Below, piece after piece: positions 3,372 to 44,347 of a DNA stretch of 64,000 bases. The DNA is from Dehalococcoidia bacterium (lineage in GTDB: Bacteria; Chloroflexota; Dehalococcoidia; Lucifugimonadales; UBA3495): positions 2,059,670 to 2,123,669 of the forward strand of contig OY761541.1 in the NCBI GenBank assembly GCA_963664625.1. Reading direction: 5' to 3'. The notes under the pieces were generated by a model, which searched no databases, was not told the DNA's origin, and saw only the letters and a list, made by a program, of their open reading frames with translations. Position numbers and translations under genes: made by a program. Within the stretch, counting starts at the first letter, position 1. Each line of letters opens with the position of its first letter.

Positions 3372-4163
3372 ATGGACCTGGAATTGAAAGGCAAGGTGGC
3401 TATAGTCGGCGGCGCTAGCAAGGGGCTGGGAAGGGCCTGCGCCGACGTTCTGGCCCAGGAAGGGGTGCAGGTCGCCGTATGCAGCCGCACCGAGGCCGAC
3501 CTGCATCAGGCAGCCGAGGAGATTCGCCAGAGCACCGGGGCGGATGTCATGGAGTACCCGGGCGATCTGGACAAGCATGAGACCATCCAGGCGCTGGTGG
3601 CCGCTACGGTGGAGCGGTTTGGCCGCTTGGACATAATGATCAACAATTCCGGCGGGCCGCCGTTGGGCCGGGCCGCCACTGCCGATGAAGACCAGTGGGA
3701 AACAGCAGTGCAGCGTTCCCTGATGTTCTTCGCCCGCATGTCCCGCGAGGCTCTTCCCCACCTGCGACGGCAGGGCGGGGGCCGCATCATCAACATCCTG
3801 GCCAGCACGGTATACCAGCCCATCCCCAACTTAGCGTTATCCGGCGCCACCCGGATGGGCGTGGTAGCCTACGCCAAGAGCTTGGCCGACGAGGTTGGCC
3901 GGGACAACATACTGGTGAACAACGTCTGCCCCGGCTCCATCCTCAGCGACCGGATGATGTCCAACGTGACCTCCCGCGCCAACGAGCTGGGCATCCCTGT
4001 TGAGGAGGCCCTTGCCCAAAGAGCGGCGGAGACTGCCTTGGGGCGGGTGGGCCAACCCGAAGAACTGGCCCATCTGGTGGCGTTCTTGGCGTCCAGCAAG
4101 TCCAGCTACATCACCGGAACCACCATCCTGGTGGACGGAGGCTTGGTCCGCTCGGTGATGTAA
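3372..4163 (+). CDS. SDR family oxidoreductase
   Basis: GGASKGLG Rossmann motif and NNSGG, 263 aa. Confidence 0.85.
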
Positions 4164-33206: not shown

Positions 33207-33953
33207 ATGACAACCAGTGAATCAGGGGGGGCTGTTGACACGAACGCCCTTTTGCTCGCTATTGGCCGGATGCAATCCGACTTCGCCACGCTTATCGAGG
33301 GTCAGCGGACACTGCGGTCTGACTTTCAAGAGGGATTTACGCTGCTAAGGACCGAAATCGGGGAAGTGCGGACGGAATTAAAGGCCGACATTGCCGAGGT
33401 ACGGACGGAGTTAAAGGCCGACATTGCCGAGGTGCGGACGGAGTTAAAGGCCGACATTGCCGAGGTGCGGACGGAACTAAAGGCCGATATTGCCGAGGTG
33501 CGGACGGAACTAAAGGCCGATATTGCCGAGGTGCGGACGGAACTAAAGGCCGAAATAGACGAGGTACGCACCGAGTTAAAGGCTGAAATAGATGAGGTGC
33601 GGACGGAGTTAAAGGCTGAAATAGGTGAAGTTCGCACGGAAATAGGCGAGGTGCGCACCGAGTTAAAGGCTGACATTGCCGGAGTGCGAAAGGAACTAAA
33701 GGCCGACATTACCGACGTTAGAAGAGAGACTGTGGCGACGCGGATGGAACTAAAGGCCGACATTGCTGACGTTAGAAGAGAGACTGTGGCGACGCGGATG
33801 GAACTAGGAGGCGAAGTGGCGGACGTGAGGATGGAGTCAATAAACCAAACGGATAGGACCACCCGGAGAATTGACCGTCTGTACTATGGTTTTCTGGCTA
33901 TGAGTGGAGCGTTGGCGGTTGCCATTATCGTTGGTAGCTTCATTCAAGGATAG
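33207..33953 (+). CDS. tail-anchored coiled-coil protein with 11-residue tandem repeats (DUF1640-like, inference)
   Basis: EVRTELKADIA repeated about 11 times, with a C-terminal TM segment LYYGFLAMSGALAVAIIVGSF. Confidence 0.7.
   Translation: MTTSESGGAVDTNALLLAIGRMQSDFATLIEGQRTLRSDFQEGFTLLRTEIGEVRTELKADIAEVRTELKADIAEVRTELKADIAEVRTELKADIAEVRTELKADIAEVRTELKAEIDEVRTELKAEIDEVRTELKAEIGEVRTEIGEVRTELKADIAGVRKELKADITDVRRETVATRMELKADIADVRRETVATRMELGGEVADVRMESINQTDRTTRRIDRLYYGFLAMSGALAVAIIVGSFIQG
33363..33821 (+). repeat. 33-bp tandem repeat array (8 full units, one 21-bp unit, two more 33-bp units, two 54-bp units) within a CDS
   Basis: gag-gtg-cgg-acg-gaa-cta-aag-gcc-gat-att-gcc units. Some neighbouring units are near-identical at DNA level. 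Confidence 0.9.
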
Positions 33954-34026: not shown

Positions 34027-35064
34027 GTGAGTCTCAACAACGTCGTCGACGCCATAGAGCTGATGTACGAGTCGGGCTGGACCGACGGGCTTCCCGTCGT
34101 GCCGCCGACGCAAGAGCGGGTGAAACAGTTTACCGACTATATGCACCCGCGCCAGCCCGATGACCTGATCGCCGAAGTGCCTCCCTTGGGAGGGCGGGCT
34201 ACCTTGGAACGGGTGGCGGTCAACGCGGTCATGGCCGGCTGCCTGCCGGAGCACATGCCCGTGATCATCACGGCGATCGAGGCGCTGCTGGACGACAGGT
34301 TCAACCTGCGGGGTGTCCAGTGCTCTACGGGGATTCATACGCCATTGGTCATCGTCAACGGGCCTGTTGCCAAGCAGTTGAACATCAACTCCGGGTACAA
34401 CTGTTTCGGACAGGGTTGGCGGGCCAACGCCACCATTGGCCGCGCCGTCAAGCTGGTTTTGGTCAACCTGGGCGGCGCGGTCCCGGGCCAGACCAATAAG
34501 GCGACCTTCGGCCACCCTGGTGCATACACCTACTGCGTGGCCGAGGCGGAAGACTCCAATCCTTGGGAGCCGTTGCACGTAGAACTGGGATTCGACGCAT
34601 CCGACAGCACGGTGGCAGTGTTCCCCGGTGAAGCACCCCACAACGTTATGTACCACGCCGCGGACCCCCGAGACTTTCTTACCGTGCTTGCCGATACCAT
34701 GTGTACTCTTGGCAACGTTCAGATGTACGTCATGGGCGGCACGTTGGTGGTGATTGGGCCGGAACACGCTCGTTTCCTGTCCGCCGGAGGTTGGAGCAAA
34801 CGAGACGTTCGCGCCTTTTTGTATGAACACGCCCGGAGGCCGGTTGGTCTGCTGCGCCGGGGCGGTCCTCCGCAGGGCGACTCTCAGAGAGCATTCCTGT
34901 GGCCCAAGTTCGTCGATCCCTCGGACGACTCCCAACCGGTCCCGGTGGTCCGACGCCCGGAGGACATCCACATCATGGTGGCCGGCGGGCAGGGAGGCCC
35001 TCACTCCACCTACATTCCCGGATGGGGCTCAAGGCTGGTTATCAGGAAGATTCAGGACACTTAA
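34027..35064 (+). CDS. conserved hypothetical protein (GWTDGLPVVPPT motif) immediately upstream of the selenoprotein candidate
   Basis: 345 aa with coding-like composition. The GTG start is uncertain. Only 11 nt separate it from the next gene. Confidence 0.6.
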   Translation: MSLNNVVDAIELMYESGWTDGLPVVPPTQERVKQFTDYMHPRQPDDLIAEVPPLGGRATLERVAVNAVMAGCLPEHMPVIITAIEALLDDRFNLRGVQCSTGIHTPLVIVNGPVAKQLNINSGYNCFGQGWRANATIGRAVKLVLVNLGGAVPGQTNKATFGHPGAYTYCVAEAEDSNPWEPLHVELGFDASDSTVAVFPGEAPHNVMYHAADPRDFLTVLADTMCTLGNVQMYVMGGTLVVIGPEHARFLSAGGWSKRDVRAFLYEHARRPVGLLRRGGPPQGDSQRAFLWPKFVDPSDDSQPVPVVRRPEDIHIMVAGGQGGPHSTYIPGWGSRLVIRKIQDT

Positions 35065-35075
35065 AGGAGGCATCT

Positions 35076-35645
35076 ATGACCATGATGCCCGCGTCCGGCG
35101 TACAGGACCGGCTGCAACAAATGGGTATTCTAGTCCCGGTGGATGAGGAGGCGTTTCATAGGTGGAACCCCGCCGACCGCCTTTCGGGTCTTCACGGCAA
35201 GGTCGGCGGCTTTCTGGGGAACCGGAAGGCGAACGCCAACACATTGCTGCTTGGCATTAAAGAGGCCCTTGAAAAGCAATTCGAACTCAGCGACGCGCTG
35301 GTCATGGACAAGTTCATCTATTCCAGACCCGCCGCCGACGGTGTAATCGACGCCCTGGCTGACAGGTGCGACTTCGTGGTTACCGCCATTGCCGATTGAG
35401 GGTCCTGCACGTCGTGCAGTGTGCACGACGCCATGACCCTGGAGAACCGGGGCATCCCCACCGTGGTGGTATGCACCGGCCCCTTCATCGACTCGGCCCA
35501 CGTTCACGCGCGGATGCTTGGCCGCACCGGGTTTCAGCCGGTGTCCATCCCCCACCCTCTCGGAGGTCTCAACTCCGAAGGGGTCAGGCAACGAGTGGCC
35601 GTCGCCGAGGAACAGATTATCTCGGCGCTGACTACGCCGGCATAA
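35076..35645 (+). CDS. UGSC-motif (seleno)protein candidate; TGA 35397-35399 read as selenocysteine
   Basis: AAGGAGG lies 6 nt upstream of the ATG. Track ORFs 34899-35399 and 35421-35645 are in the same frame, separated only by the TGA. The readthrough gives ...VTAIAD-U-GSCTSCSVHDAMTLENRGIPTVVVCTGPF... A hairpin follows the TGA. Confidence 0.6.
35400..35439 (+). promoter_or_regulatory. SECIS-like hairpin candidate
   Basis: Lower stem gggtc/gaccc (35400-35404 and 35435-35439). Upper 9-bp perfect stem cgtcgtgca/tgcacgacg (35410-35418 and 35422-35430). The G-containing apical loop lies about 20 nt after the UGA. Confidence 0.5.
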
Positions 35646-35665
35646 GCATGGCGTAGTGGCTGCCC
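35559..35665 (+). repeat. 107-bp direct repeat, copy A (3' end of the UGSC gene)
   Basis: Matches 36355-36461 with 2 mismatches. Confidence 0.9.
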
Positions 35666-35688
35666 GATAACGGACCAGTGCCGTCGCG

Positions 35689-36021
35689 CTACATTATCAA
35701 CGTATCGATATTCGTACCCAGCTCTTCAGCGATCCGTGAGAGAGTCGGCATAGAGCCCGGTTTGAGACCGCGTTCTATCTCGGAAAGATAGCTTCGGCTG
35801 ATTCCGGTCTTTTGGGAAAGGTCGCGCAACGAGACGCCCAAGTGTTTCCTGAACGCGGCTAGCGGGCTCATTCCATCCATGACCAAGAGGGCCACTTCGT
35901 GAGGAATTCGGCTGCCGTCTTCCGCTTCCATAGCCGATAACTTGTCCTCAAGTTCCTCATTGCGTGAGACCAGAGCATCATATTCAGCGCGCGTCAGCGT
36001 GATTGTATCGGCATTAGTCAT
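35689..36021 (-). CDS. XRE-family HTH antitoxin
   Basis: LRDLSQKTGISRSYLSEIERGLKPGSMPTLSRIAEELG. Confidence 0.75.
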   Translation of the reverse strand: MTNADTITLTRAEYDALVSRNEELEDKLSAMEAEDGSRIPHEVALLVMDGMSPLAAFRKHLGVSLRDLSQKTGISRSYLSEIERGLKPGSMPTLSRIAEELGTNIDTLIM

Positions 36022-36292
36022 AGGACTCTCTCCGGTGCAACACTCTTCTTATTGCCATGATGACCGGCGTCTCATGTTCCAGCCTGAAGATTACCCGGTG
36101 GACGCCGAGCCTCATCCGCAGGCACTCGCTTCCGGAGACCGTCGTCAATTGGTTGGCCGGCGACGTGGGGTCGTCGGCATATTGTTCAATCTTGGCCACT
36201 ATGCGTTCGCGGTTCTGTGGTTCCAACCGGCACATGTCTTTTACTGCCCTGATTGACCATTCGATTCTTAGTTGACGACACACAAAGCACAT
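36014..36292 (-). CDS. RelE/ParE-family toxin
   Basis: IEWSIRAVKDMCRLEPQNRERIVAKIEQYADDP...LRMRLGVHRVIFRLEHETPVIMAIRRVLHRRESY. It overlaps the antitoxin by 8 nt. The start is uncertain (ATG 36292 or GTG 36283). Confidence 0.7.
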   Translation of the reverse strand: MCFVCRQLRIEWSIRAVKDMCRLEPQNRERIVAKIEQYADDPTSPANQLTTVSGSECLRMRLGVHRVIFRLEHETPVIMAIRRVLHRRESYD

Positions 36293-36354
36293 GTTCGCAA
36301 TTGGCGAACACCGTGTCAAGAAGGATATATTGGAGAGGGTGTAACCCTGACCCC

Positions 36355-36461
36355 CTCGGAGGTCTCAACTCCGAAGGGGTCAGGCAACGGGTGGCCGTCG
36401 CCGAGGAACAGATTATCTCGGCGTTGACTACGCCGGCATAAGCATGGCGTAGTGGCTGCCC
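36355..36461 (+). repeat. 107-bp direct repeat, copy B (3' end of the BNR-repeat gene)
   Basis: Matches 35559-35665 with 2 mismatches. Confidence 0.9.
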
Positions 36462-37495
36462 TTGGATATGGGCGGCAGGTTGTCGACGATTTGCGACCAA
36501 CTGTCGCCGCCGTCTTCGCTGCACCAGACCTCGCCGGAAGCGGTTGCGGCAAAGATTGAGAACGACTCGCCCCAGTCTTCCAGGCTCATGGCCTCTACGG
36601 CCGATTGCATCCGGTCCGGCAGCCCGTTTTGCAGGTGCTCCCACGTCCTGCCGCCGTCGGTGCTGCGAGATATGCGGCTTCCCGCGAAGTGGGTCTGGGG
36701 CCATGACCCGGGACCATATTGGGCGGCGGCCACGAATACCAGGTCGGGTTGACGCGGGTGCAGCACCAGCAGGTCCGGGTAGGCGCCAAGCTCGTGGTCG
36801 GTGGTTGCCCAGTGCTCCCAGGAATCGCCCCCGTCCGACGTAACGTACAACCCGTCGCCCCCGGTGATGTACATCCGGTCGGCATTCAACGGGTTTATCA
36901 CCGTGCGGTGAACGTCGTCGTCCATGCCCGGAATAGTCGTGAAGGTCTTGCCGCCGTCGACGCTCTTTTGTAGCCCGCCGACCTCGATGCCGATGAACAA
37001 CGTGTCCGGGTCGCCGGGATGGAAGTTAATGTGCTTGGTGTGGGCGATGTGGGGAGGGCCGGGGAAGTGCCACTTGGAAGTATCCACCGACCGCAACGCC
37101 GGAAGCTCGGCCCAATGTCTGCCAAGATCGTCGCTGTAGAACAGGTGGGCCGGTTGGGTGCCGGCGAATATTCTCACCTTGCCGTTGACGCGTTTGGCCG
37201 CAAGGCTGTAAACGTCGTGCTGGGTAATCCCATCGTCTCTCCGCTCCCAAGTCTGTCCTCCGTCCTCGCTAACGTACACGGTATCATGGGTAGCCCCCAC
37301 TACAATCGCGCCGCTCTCCGGTTCGACGATGACGGCGTGTATGTGCTTGTCGGGCAATGCCCGGTGGGTCTCAGTCCATCCGTCGCCATTCCGTTTCAGA
37401 AACGCCAAGCCGTCCTTGGTGCCTACCAGGACTTCGTCGGACCTGGACTTCGATGAAAAGATAGTGTCGCCGCCGTGGGATAGCGTTATAGCCAT
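36428..37495 (-). CDS. BNR/Asp-box repeat beta-propeller protein (sialidase-like fold)
   Basis: Six S-x-D-x-G-x-T/S-W boxes (SEDGGQTW, SDDLGRHW, SVDGGKTF, SDGGDSW, STDGGRTW, SEDGGDSW). Start moved to ATG 37495, preceded by AAGGAGG. Confidence 0.8.
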   Translation of the reverse strand: MAITLSHGGDTIFSSKSRSDEVLVGTKDGLAFLKRNGDGWTETHRALPDKHIHAVIVEPESGAIVVGATHDTVYVSEDGGQTWERRDDGITQHDVYSLAAKRVNGKVRIFAGTQPAHLFYSDDLGRHWAELPALRSVDTSKWHFPGPPHIAHTKHINFHPGDPDTLFIGIEVGGLQKSVDGGKTFTTIPGMDDDVHRTVINPLNADRMYITGGDGLYVTSDGGDSWEHWATTDHELGAYPDLLVLHPRQPDLVFVAAAQYGPGSWPQTHFAGSRISRSTDGGRTWEHLQNGLPDRMQSAVEAMSLEDWGESFSIFAATASGEVWCSEDGGDSWSQIVDNLPPISKGSHYAMLMPA

Positions 37496-37683
37496 CGAAT
37501 CCTCCTTGCTAAGACGGGCGATGCCCGCCACTGTATGCTTGTTGATGCAAGCATAGGTTGGTGAACTATGGGCGTCAATCCCGATAGTTCTTGGCGCCAC
37601 TGGCTCACCAGGGGGCTTGGCCGTGTTAAAATTGTGCAGTATAGCTTTGAACGCAGCTTTAGGGAGCGGCTTGGAGGTCATAC

Positions 37684-38766: not shown

Positions 38767-38801
38767 AAACTATCTCAAACCTTGATGGTGGATCGATGCT
38801 A

Positions 38802-41671: not shown

Positions 41672-42643
41672 TCAGGGCGCACTGTTGCGGGGCACGTCGT
41701 CAGGCGTGGTCCCGCTTCTCCGGTGTACATGGTCCACGATGGCGTTGATAGCCTCGTTCAGTTTCTCCTGGAGGTCCTGTTTTTCCTCCGGGGTCATGAT
41801 GTGGTTCGTCCCGCCGTACCGGTATGTCACCGCGTAGAGTTCCAACCAGTTCTGGGTGCGGGCTGGATTCCGGCTGTCGGCGTAGCTGGTTGCGTCCAAG
41901 AGGAAGTCTACTTTTTCCTGCACCTGTCCGAAGTGGGGATCGGTGTGGGTCTCCTCATTCTGGATGTCGGTCCAGAGGGGTCCGAAGTCGTGCCCCCAGT
42001 CCCGTTGTTGGTTGTAGGTGGATAGCAGTGTTTTCAGAGCGTTCTCGAAGGCTTGTTGTCCGGCGAATCCCAGTATCCGCTGCCTGGGACTGTTGTTTTC
42101 CACTCTTTCGTTGAATTCGTCGAGCCAGTCAAGGGCGTTTTCTATCCTGACCCTGGTCTCGGGCCAGTGGGATGGATAGTTAACCGTCCGGCCATTTACC
42201 GCCGAGAGCACAGAGCTCGCCGAGAATAACAAAAAAATCTCTGCGCTCTTTGCGTTTTCTGCGGTGAGAACGTCGTAACCCTCGATGTATTCTTCGTCCT
42301 CTTCATCGTAGTGCCGGTAGTCCGGTCGTTCCCGGCTCATCTCTACCCCGTAGGCGGCGGCCCGTCCCGCGATATGCCGGGCTGCCAGTCGGTTTGTCTC
42401 GAATTCGGTCTTGGTCATGACGCTGACGTCGCACCCGGTTTGTGTCGCCAGTCTTTCTCTTTCCCGGGCGGCCTTCCACCGTGCTTGAGTCTGCCAGTCT
42501 ACCCGGTTGGTGTCGTCGGGAATGATGATGAGCAGGTCGGTATCCGAGTTGGGCCTGTGGTCTCCCCGGGCCCTGGAACCGAAGAGGATCACTCTTGCCC
42601 CGGGCATTTCGTCTTGGACGGCCTGGGCGATGGCCAAGGCCAT
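41672..42643 (-). CDS. fused nucleotidyltransferase and HEPN-like protein with an in-frame 96-bp repeat in the linker
   Basis: GSRARGDHRPNSDTDLLI NTase motif. It is a paralogue of 11671-12531. The segment LTAENAKSAEIFLLFSASSVLSAVNGRTVN is encoded by repeat 42180-42275. Confidence 0.65.
   Translation of the reverse strand: MALAIAQAVQDEMPGARVILFGSRARGDHRPNSDTDLLIIIPDDTNRVDWQTQARWKAARERERLATQTGCDVSVMTKTEFETNRLAARHIAGRAAAYGVEMSRERPDYRHYDEEDEEYIEGYDVLTAENAKSAEIFLLFSASSVLSAVNGRTVNYPSHWPETRVRIENALDWLDEFNERVENNSPRQRILGFAGQQAFENALKTLLSTYNQQRDWGHDFGPLWTDIQNEETHTDPHFGQVQEKVDFLLDATSYADSRNPARTQNWLELYAVTYRYGGTNHIMTPEEKQDLQEKLNEAINAIVDHVHRRSGTTPDDVPRNSAP
42180..42275. repeat. 96-bp hairpin repeat, copy 1 (inside a CDS)
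   Basis: Collinear with 44252-44347 with about 6 mismatches. Imperfect inverted arms flank AATAACAAAAAAA. Confidence 0.85.
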
Positions 42644-43634: not shown

Positions 43635-44255
43635 ATGATTTACGAAGTAAGGACCTATACCTTGAAACCGGGGTCGGTCGCCCAGTTTGAGGAAAACTTC
43701 GCCAAGGCGTTGCCGGCCAGGGAAAAGTATTCCAAGCTGGGCGCTTTCTGGCACACCGACATTGGCCCGTTGAACCAAGTGATCCACGTTTGGCCCTACG
43801 AGAGCGTCGACGAGCGCAACAGGATCCGGGCGGAGGCCGCCCAGGACCCGGAGTGGCCCCCCGCCAACCCGCCGGAAATGTACGTGAACATGGAGTCGGA
43901 AATATGGACCCCGGCCCCGTTCATGCGGCCTCTGGGCGGTGACCAGGCCCTGGGCAACATTTACGAGATGCGGACCTACACCTACGTGAACGGCGCAATG
44001 GGCGAGGTTATCAAGCGGTGGTCGGAAGCTATACCTCACCGGGAAGAGTATTCGCCGTTGGCCGCGGCCATGTCCACCGAGCTTGGCAATCTCAACAAGT
44101 GGCTGCATATATGGCCCTACAAGGACCTGGAGCATCGTAACCAAGTGCGTGAGGAAGCCGGCAAGAACCCCCACTGGCCCGCCCCGACCCGCGAGTTCCT
44201 GGTGAAGCAGGAGAACAAGATCGTAGTCCCCTCGTCGTTCTCCCCGATGCATTAA
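43635..44255 (+). CDS. NIPSNAP family protein (two domains)
   Basis: MIYEVRTYTLKPGSVAQFEENF..., with a second copy IYEMRTYTYVNGAMGEVIKRW. Confidence 0.8.
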   Translation: MIYEVRTYTLKPGSVAQFEENFAKALPAREKYSKLGAFWHTDIGPLNQVIHVWPYESVDERNRIRAEAAQDPEWPPANPPEMYVNMESEIWTPAPFMRPLGGDQALGNIYEMRTYTYVNGAMGEVIKRWSEAIPHREEYSPLAAAMSTELGNLNKWLHIWPYKDLEHRNQVREEAGKNPHWPAPTREFLVKQENKIVVPSSFSPMH

Positions 44256-44347
44256 CCCTCCGGCCATTTACCGCCGAGAGCGCAGAGCGCGCCGAGAATA
44301 ACAAAAAAATCTCTGCGCTCTTTGCGTTCTCTGCGGTGAGAACGTCG
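44252..44347. repeat. 96-bp hairpin repeat, copy 2 (starts within the NIPSNAP stop codon)
   Basis: See 42180-42275. Confidence 0.85.

Follow-up and report, generated by a model that had tools for sequence, protein, structure and literature searches.

How did a two-gene toxin-antitoxin (TA) unit come to lie between the 3′ ends of two convergent genes and leave both of them complete? This question is raised by a locus of a Dehalococcoidia bacterium (assembly GCA_963664625.1) in a 64,000-nt stretch of DNA that we call the window (contig OY761541.1, positions 2,059,670 to 2,123,669). The source genome, designated G000, is a single 3.76-Mb contig. Plain coordinates below are those of the window, while positions in the whole contig carry the prefix G000:C1. 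Within 35549-36461, a predicted RelE/ParE-type toxin gene and an XRE-type antitoxin gene are enclosed by two direct copies of a segment in which a UGSC-family selenoprotein gene and a beta-propeller (BNR) gene both end. In its sequence features the cassette matches insertion with long target duplication. The history that we consider probable is an ancient insertion of this kind, followed by gene conversion between the copies and by precise loss in one related species.

Duplicated gene ends around the cassette

The repeat search gave a direct repeat at 35549-35665 and 36345-36461, 117 nt long with 96% identity and a start-to-start spacing of 796 nt. It extends the 107-nt repeat with two mismatches claimed in the original prediction (35559-35665 and 36355-36461), for which pairwise alignment gave the same count (a/g at 35594, c/t at 35628). 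A genome search and a whole-genome self-BLAST found the segment strictly in two copies, at this one place only; it is therefore neither a chance similarity nor a dispersed element. The features of the locus are as follows.

35076..35645, plus strand: UGSC-family selenoprotein gene, 189 aa with TGA read as U (Pfam UGSC 6.3e-45; NCBIfam UGSC_fam 6.7e-39, above cut-off)
35549..35665, no strand: repeat copy A, formed by the working 3′ end of UGSC (left) and a relic of that of BNR (right)
35666..35688, no strand: spacer of 23 nt from copy A to the antitoxin stop
35689..36021, minus strand: antitoxin gene, XRE/HTH_3 family, 110 aa (Pfam HTH_3 1e-12)
36014..36319, minus strand: toxin gene, RelE/ParE superfamily, 101 aa as listed (Pfam ParE_toxin 3.8e-7, 31 bits, cut-off 23)
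36291..36319, minus strand: candidate promoter/operator, with TTGACA at 36314-36319 and an inverted repeat GTGTTCGC..GCGAACAT at 36291-36311
36320..36344, no strand: stretch upstream of the promoter that closes the insert on the right, ending in ...GGGTGTAAC in all occupied genomes (four-genome alignment)
36345..36461, no strand: repeat copy B, formed by a relic of the UGSC 3′ end (left) and the working 3′ end of BNR (right)
36346..36384, no strand: GC-rich hairpin on the left margin of the duplication, with 16-nt arms 94% complementary, present in all species
36428..37681, minus strand: BNR/Sortilin-type beta-propeller gene (Pfam Sortilin-Vps10 7.9e-23, and BNR), with orthologues in relatives

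The last 28-31 codons of the UGSC gene and its TAA stop (35643-35645) lie inside copy A, and the last ~10 codons of the BNR gene with its stop (36428-36430, CTA on the plus strand) lie inside copy B. Open reading frames (ORFs) and profile matches agree with the earlier claim that each copy ends one of the two genes and that both 3′ ends are intact. Copy A still holds the relic of the BNR stop (CTA at 35632-35634, in the context gaCTAcgcc). With one copy only, the ends of the two ORFs would share 14 nt (copy A coordinates 35632-35645). A tail-to-tail overlap had been predicted, and it is the case in the related genome G002. The string ccggcataagcatggcgtag, which had been quoted as containing both stops, does contain that of UGSC, but the BNR stop is located 8 nt upstream, outside the string. 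The geometry of the two copies requires that the insertion was made into a single-copy overlapping gene pair.

In the 679 bp that separate the copies there are two minus-strand genes only, with an 8-nt overlap, and their Pfam matches (ParE_toxin and HTH_3) bear out the expected toxin and antitoxin. This two-ORF insert includes neither a transposase nor an integrase, in line with the first reading of the sequence. The G+C content of the insert was 0.535, compared to 0.605 for the flanks and 0.596 for the genome, a difference that speaks for a foreign origin. A toxin of the RelE/ParE superfamily, together with an adjacent co-oriented small gene coding for a DNA-binding domain, makes the pair a predicted type II TA operon. 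The best relevant solved relatives of the toxin were E. coli RelE chains, with a weak match (E 0.025), and a comparison of the toxin with NCBIfam gave no match. The family match begins at residue 19; hence the toxin start is probably downstream of the promoter. A strict promoter scan of the cassette found no full sigma-70 match, and the promoter/operator role of 36291-36319 is putative. The spacer at 35666-35688 is possibly a decayed continuation of the duplicated BNR tail. In a look-up of encoding contigs, no record was returned for the exact antitoxin sequence.

We observed that antitoxin amino acid identity to G000 was 98% in the related genome G001 and 85% in G003. The ratio of nonsynonymous to synonymous divergence (dN/dS) over the three species was 0.02-0.22 for the antitoxin and 0.18-0.32 for the toxin. 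By these values, both cassette genes are under purifying selection, and they are intact in the three species.

As for the host genes, the UGSC gene has an in-frame TGA at 35397-35399 that is read as selenocysteine. The BNR ORF is listed from 37681, and the alignment of its orthologues begins at about residue 59-63, which leaves ~355 aa. A weaker version of the copy B hairpin sits in the UGSC coding sequence of copy A. The RNA fold on the BNR-sense strand had z = -5.2 for copy B and z = -2.8 for copy A, and the hairpin at 36346-36384 may work as a terminator or stabiliser of the BNR transcript.

Directly upstream of the UGSC gene is a gene for a 345-aa protein (34027-35064) with no Pfam or NCBIfam match. 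It opens with the motif GWTDGLPVVP, and so does another gene near a UGSC paralogue at G000:C1:2225192-2229315; the 345-aa protein may be a conserved partner of UGSC proteins. A gene for a coiled-coil protein (33207-33953), next to the UGSC operon on its upstream side, is built with near-identical 33-nt in-frame repeats (EVRTELKADIA units).

Occupied and empty sites in the genus

The cassette was found at the same site in four of the five species of the genus: G000, G001, G003 and L074, the last being the fifth member, represented by a short contig. The whole unit is present in G001 at 88% nucleotide identity and in G003 at 83%, with flanking repeats of 84 nt (95% identity) and 151 nt (87% identity), respectively. 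In G002 there is a single repeat copy with contiguous flanks; UGSC and BNR are intact, both stops are present, and the genes overlap tail to tail by 14 nt. The original prediction had proposed a search of related genomes for just such an empty site with one copy; it exists, although, as argued below, it is probably a revertant. Outside the genus, none of the 35 loci with BNR orthologues had a UGSC gene or the cassette nearby.

The rpoB tree had the topology ((G000,G001),(G002,G003)), with rpoB of G002 and G003 97.9% identical. The BNR tree agreed with it on (G000,G001) and left G002 and G003 unresolved. Between G000 and G001 the synonymous divergence (dS) was 0.32-0.35 for the cassette, 0.345 for BNR and 0.321 for rpoB, an equality that fits vertical descent. 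Since the cassette occupies the same site in four of five species and its dS equals that of the host genes in the G000/G001 pair, the insertion is, on these comparisons, not recent. It had been stated earlier that diverged repeats in all relatives would indicate an ancient gene-end duplication rather than an insertion. Most relatives do have such repeats, and the event is ancient, but the geometry of the copies still requires an insertion.

The repeats themselves keep a record of what followed. Seven repeat copies were compared across G000-G003 in a column-numbered table of variable sites. Both G001 copies have G001-specific bases at columns 32, 47 and 56, while both G000 copies have a G000-specific base at column 47. 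Such species-specific bases in both copies imply gene conversion after the split of G000 and G001, and it is gene conversion, not recency, that accounts for the 98% identity of the copies in G000. Other bases are specific to a copy rather than to a species: copy A has G at column 63 in both G001 and G003, and copy B has T at column 72 in both G000 and G003. Shared by both clades, these bases argue for one old duplication.

For the single copy of G002, we found a mixture. At column 68 it has a derived A-type base, also present in copy A of G003, while copy B of G003 keeps the old base. At columns 84 and 104 it has derived B-type bases, also present in copy B of G003, while copy A of G003 keeps the old bases. 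With A-type and B-type bases both present in G002, the duplication predates the split of G002 and G003. The empty site of G002 is most likely a revertant, a recombinant with an A-type left part and a B-type right part and a crossover between columns 68 and 84; we hold this with moderate confidence.

The duplication may once have been longer than it is in G000. Copy A of G003 continues with gaps, and only ~3 nt then separate it from the antitoxin stop (local alignment score 28, shuffle p ~0.02); the corresponding segment of G000 alone was not significant (shuffle p 0.2). Because copy A of G003 extends almost to the antitoxin stop, the original duplication perhaps measured 165-180 nt. The BNR relic is partly gone in G000 and G001, and the deletion in G001 gives UGSC a TAA stop again.

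Some local changes were seen near the cassette in individual species. In L074 (~4050-4110) the BNR stop is replaced and the ORF is longer by five codons (..ALTKPA); the extension is caused by a short inverted copy of neighbouring sequence (GCTTATGCCGG..CCGGCATAAGC) in copy B, apparently a hairpin-templated change. In G003 (locus L023), a 15-nt sequence (GGTAGGCGTTGTTGT) stands twice in tandem in the interval from the cassette promoter to copy B.

Two cassette homologues at first resembled further cases and were rejected. The homologue in G015 is flanked by 126-nt direct repeats (L027 1180-1305 and 2091-2216); these are copies of a dispersed element, present at least 44 times in that genome at ~90% identity. 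A ~30-nt core of this element (cccgcgaaggcgggaatcc) is also scattered in genomes of the window's genus, e.g., near window position 38800. Two TA copies in G028 were both inside a segmental duplication of at least 2 kb.

Entry of the cassette and competing explanations

The original prediction had suggested a search of the genome for more TA cassettes bounded by long duplications. The self-BLAST of G000 gave 37 two-copy direct-repeat pairs (46-559 nt, spacing 150-6000 nt), many of which enclose small selfish or defence-type genes. Eleven pairs other than the one described above were compared with G001-G003 and called clean if relatives had contiguous flanks with one repeat copy. Three of them were clean, with insert G+C of 0.45-0.50, but their cargo was not TA: it was a restriction-modification (RM) pair, a nuclease and an unknown two-gene unit.

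The type II RM pair (N6_N4_Mtase 9.5e-51 and RE_ApaLI 7.8e-90; G000:C1:2046321-2048338, ~13 kb upstream of the window) comes with a 68-nt duplication of the neighbouring gene's 3′ end. It is present in G000 and G003, where both repeat copies carry G003-specific bases, and its site is empty with one copy in G001 and G002. The gene for a 358-aa NucS_C-like protein (G000:C1:3398829-3400258) is located between convergent genes and bracketed by a 158-163 nt repeat. Its distribution is that of the RM pair, with the insert present in G000 and G003 and empty sites in G001 and G002, and in G003 one copy has its useless part trimmed. The two-gene cassette (G000:C1:1160527-1161845), made of a gene for a 233-aa membrane protein and a 68-aa ORF, is flanked by a 152-nt repeat of the 3′ end of an amidase-like gene, and its site is empty in G001 and G002. 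All four clean events, the TA cassette included, are at gene 3′ ends. Judged by these loci, insertion with long target duplication is recurrent in the G000 genome.

Among the remaining pairs, some fell into variable regions; those with non-collinear flanks in relatives were at G000:C1 positions 654557-655370 (HigA-like), 2225495-2226361 (DUF4258/DUF2283-like), 3434807-3435734 (DUF433/DUF5615-like), 772021-773193 (Uma2) and 2879474; the protein names were assigned by eye from translations. At G000:C1 665525-666259 a two-copy direct repeat encloses a Uma2 endonuclease gene. The repeats that enclose the HigA-, DUF- and Uma2-type genes (654557, 2225495, 3434807, 772021, 665525) measure 55-212 nt. 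Two candidates were rejected as target duplications. For the pair G000:C1 107415/108678 both copies are missing in relatives, so the repeats belong to the insert. For a 96-nt hairpin pair in the window (42180-42275 and 44252-44347) the downstream copy is missing in G001-G003, and the hairpin looks like a miniature inserted element. Its two copies surround a PIN/RHH pair, found in G000 and G001 only, and a NIPSNAP gene; the upstream position is unmatched in relatives. Bracketing by dispersed miniature elements was thus found for these two pairs in G000 and for the G015 homologue, while the repeat of the TA cassette is two-copy.

The scenario that probably holds for the TA cassette is thus one of ancient insertion with long target duplication, gene conversion and precise loss. 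A foreign TA operon would have entered the ancestor of the genus at the 14-nt tail-to-tail overlap of UGSC and BNR. Its entry would have duplicated at least 117 nt of the target (151 nt in G003), leaving one copy on each side. Neither gene would have been damaged, because copy A completes UGSC and copy B completes BNR. No recombinase would have arrived with the cassette. The copies would then have kept exchanging sequence by gene conversion, and G000 and G001 would have lost some of the useless halves. Homologous recombination of one copy with the other would have taken the cassette and one copy out of G002 and restored the overlapping pair exactly.

The arrival of the cassette was called unclear in the original prediction. 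There is a precedent, which it fits, in insertion with long target duplication (PMC2853133). We tentatively propose, as one possibility, a single illegitimate host-driven event in which the target ends were staggered by 100-200 nt and filled in. Two offset nicks might have produced the staggered opening, or else a template switch where a fork had stalled, possibly at the hairpin. Incoming DNA would have been joined in and both single-stranded target stretches filled in; a template switch at a stalled fork would yield the same product. The hairpin at the left edge and the location of the four events at 3′ ends are compatible with this model, and equally with selection for harmless insertions.

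A more speculative extension, which we regard as rather doubtful, is that the small addiction and defence cassettes of this lineage are recombinase-free mobile units with the duplication as a RecA-dependent site of excision and re-integration. If true, the cassettes would be able to depart scar-free and to come back into relatives through one crossover, a reversible life cycle. Such a cycle would explain their patchy presence: this cassette is in G000, G001 and G003 and absent from G002, and two others are in G000 and G003 and absent from G001 and G002.

Several observations weigh against the scenario of old insertion, conversion and loss. Between clades, the cassette dS (0.26-0.46, vs L005 and L003) was lower than the host dS (0.53-0.56, BNR and rpoB); the cause could be that the cassette moved horizontally within the genus, that codons are constrained, or that 193 codons give a noisy estimate. 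The case for reversion in G002 has three sites only. The extent of copy A differs among three species, yet all the copies end near the same point beside the insert, a pattern not expected from simple random deletion. The four clean events were compared for microhomology at the junctions and for a common end motif, and the boundaries have decayed so that none is readable. Homologous cassettes at other sites, in G023, G028 and five metagenome loci, have no long flanking repeats. The step that created the duplication is inferred, not observed. Finally, no Ku gene was found in the four genomes, which makes classical end joining of a staggered break unlikely, so that some other joining route must be assumed.

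The low between-clade dS is one of the observations that would be natural if the cassette had spread by Campbell-type integration. Here a circle or linear piece with one UGSC/BNR junction enters by a single crossover, and G002 was never occupied and is ancestral. A circle of just this kind would be set free by recombination between the copies, all four genomes have ComEC, and species-specific bases in both copies could arise in this way. In addition, the right part of copy A of G003 has other-clade bases at columns 84 and 104. The left part of copy B of G003 should then be donor-type, but it has bases of the G002/G003 lineage at columns 14, 29-30 and 47. The equality of cassette and host dS between G000 and G001 also disagrees with spread of this kind. 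Moreover, the first entry is left unexplained, for the cassette is foreign DNA, poor in G+C, and the UGSC/BNR junction is confined to the genus. Campbell crossover needs incoming DNA with the junction; therefore, it cannot hold for the first entry, while it is possible for later spread. As an account of the locus, we consider it unlikely.

The cassette could also be what is left of a larger integrase-borne island, with the repeat as attL/attR and all but the addictive TA pair deleted. Elements that integrate site-specifically often leave direct repeats and rebuild the 3′ end of the gene that they target. TA pairs are common on islands and resist loss (PMC7167474). However, no integrase was found in or beside the insert in four occupied species, with dS up to 0.55, and the same minimal insert ends were found in all four. 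The repeat, at 117-180 nt, is not a tRNA gene, and three other cassettes of G000, with unrelated repeats of 68-163 nt, are also without an integrase. These facts make an island relic very improbable.

Independent insertions of the cassette, one per species, always at the one hairpin but with duplications of unequal length, would account for the different extents of copy A (~151 nt or more in G003, 117 nt in G000, 90 nt in G001), for the constant junction at the hairpin base and for the species-specific bases in both copies. This explanation, too, has little chance given the copy-specific bases common to both clades (columns 63 and 72), insert ends identical in all species, cassette divergence equal to host divergence between G000 and G001, and no second cassette copy in any genome from which to re-insert. 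An assembly artefact, i.e., a collapsed or expanded repeat, might be feared in a metagenome-assembled genome such as G000, but its chance is negligible, as the same architecture appears with species-specific differences in three other assemblies and a clean single-copy site in a fourth, with both genes intact in every arrangement.

Comparison with known systems

Transposons and insertion sequences (IS), like this cassette, are bracketed by a direct duplication of the target. Their target duplications are typically <10 bp, with 19-26 bp in Mycoplasma IS1630 (PMC2853133). No transposase gene and no terminal inverted repeats were found in the insert, the only inverted repeat across it being the hairpin sequence. 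With integrase islands the cassette has in common that flanking direct repeats (attL/attR in the islands) keep the ends of target genes and that recombination between the repeats restores the site. Unlike the islands, it has no integrase and no tRNA target, its repeats are much longer and variable in extent, and its excision would need host homologous recombination; no recombinase gene, tyrosine or serine, was found in the insert of any of the four occupied genomes.

As a TA unit, the cassette resembles RelE/ParE-XRE modules of the HigBA order: the toxin gene comes first and overlaps the HTH_3 antitoxin gene, and an inverted repeat lies in the putative promoter. It differs from the named TA families, none of which is close, and its antitoxin has an N-terminal extension of ~50 residues before the HTH domain. 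According to a 2020 review, the mode of TA module integration had not been elucidated (PMC7167474). In a full-text literature search we found no paper describing the long-target-duplication signature for a TA pair. A possible parallel, a duplicated 77-bp target at E. coli ccdO157, was dropped as there was no long direct repeat in strain Sakai.

Insertion with long target duplication was reportedly described for RM gene complexes by Nobusato et al. in 2000 (Gene 259:99). In genome comparisons, such RM units had repeats of 46-423 bp and no mobility gene (PMC2853133; also PMC3874152), the empty site had one copy, and the target often overlapped a gene 3′ end (PMC2853133). Only inserts with both an R and an M gene qualified in the genome screen; DNA breaks made by the restriction enzyme were named as a possible driver, and a cycle of insertion, amplification and release was proposed, without experimental proof (PMC2853133).

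The definition of Furuta et al. (2010) can be applied to the present locus point by point. Flanking direct repeats >30 bp are present in G000, G001 and G003. A single copy with collinear flanks in a relative is provided by G002, where the site is probably a revertant. The insert is <20 kb and has no mobility gene (679 bp, two ORFs), and the repeat, being two-copy, is not an IS, MITE or REP element. The demand for R and M genes in the insert is where the TA cassette departs, while the separate RM cassette of G000 conforms. The signature on a TA pair is an extension of a phenomenon described so far for RM units.

That RM, TA and two other cargo types bear the same scar in one genome speaks for an insertion route that is a property of the host or the incoming DNA, and not of restriction-enzyme cutting. 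The five-species series, in which gene conversion would keep the copies alike, useless halves are trimmed and recombination would remove the cassette exactly, suggests that such cassettes can come and go without damage even to overlapping genes. It offers a dated example of gene entry and exit without a recombinase of its own. It also calls for caution in site comparisons, as "empty sites" may be revertants.

Like the RM-unit insertions, the present one is a small addiction-type unit with no mobility gene and a unique long repeat (117-180 nt here). Unlike them, its cargo is a type II TA pair and not R and M genes, and a RelE-like toxin, in contrast to a restriction enzyme, would not cut DNA. 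The target is the overlap of two convergent genes, and the event is old, with gene conversion, trimming and a probable precise reversion still traceable in the repeats.

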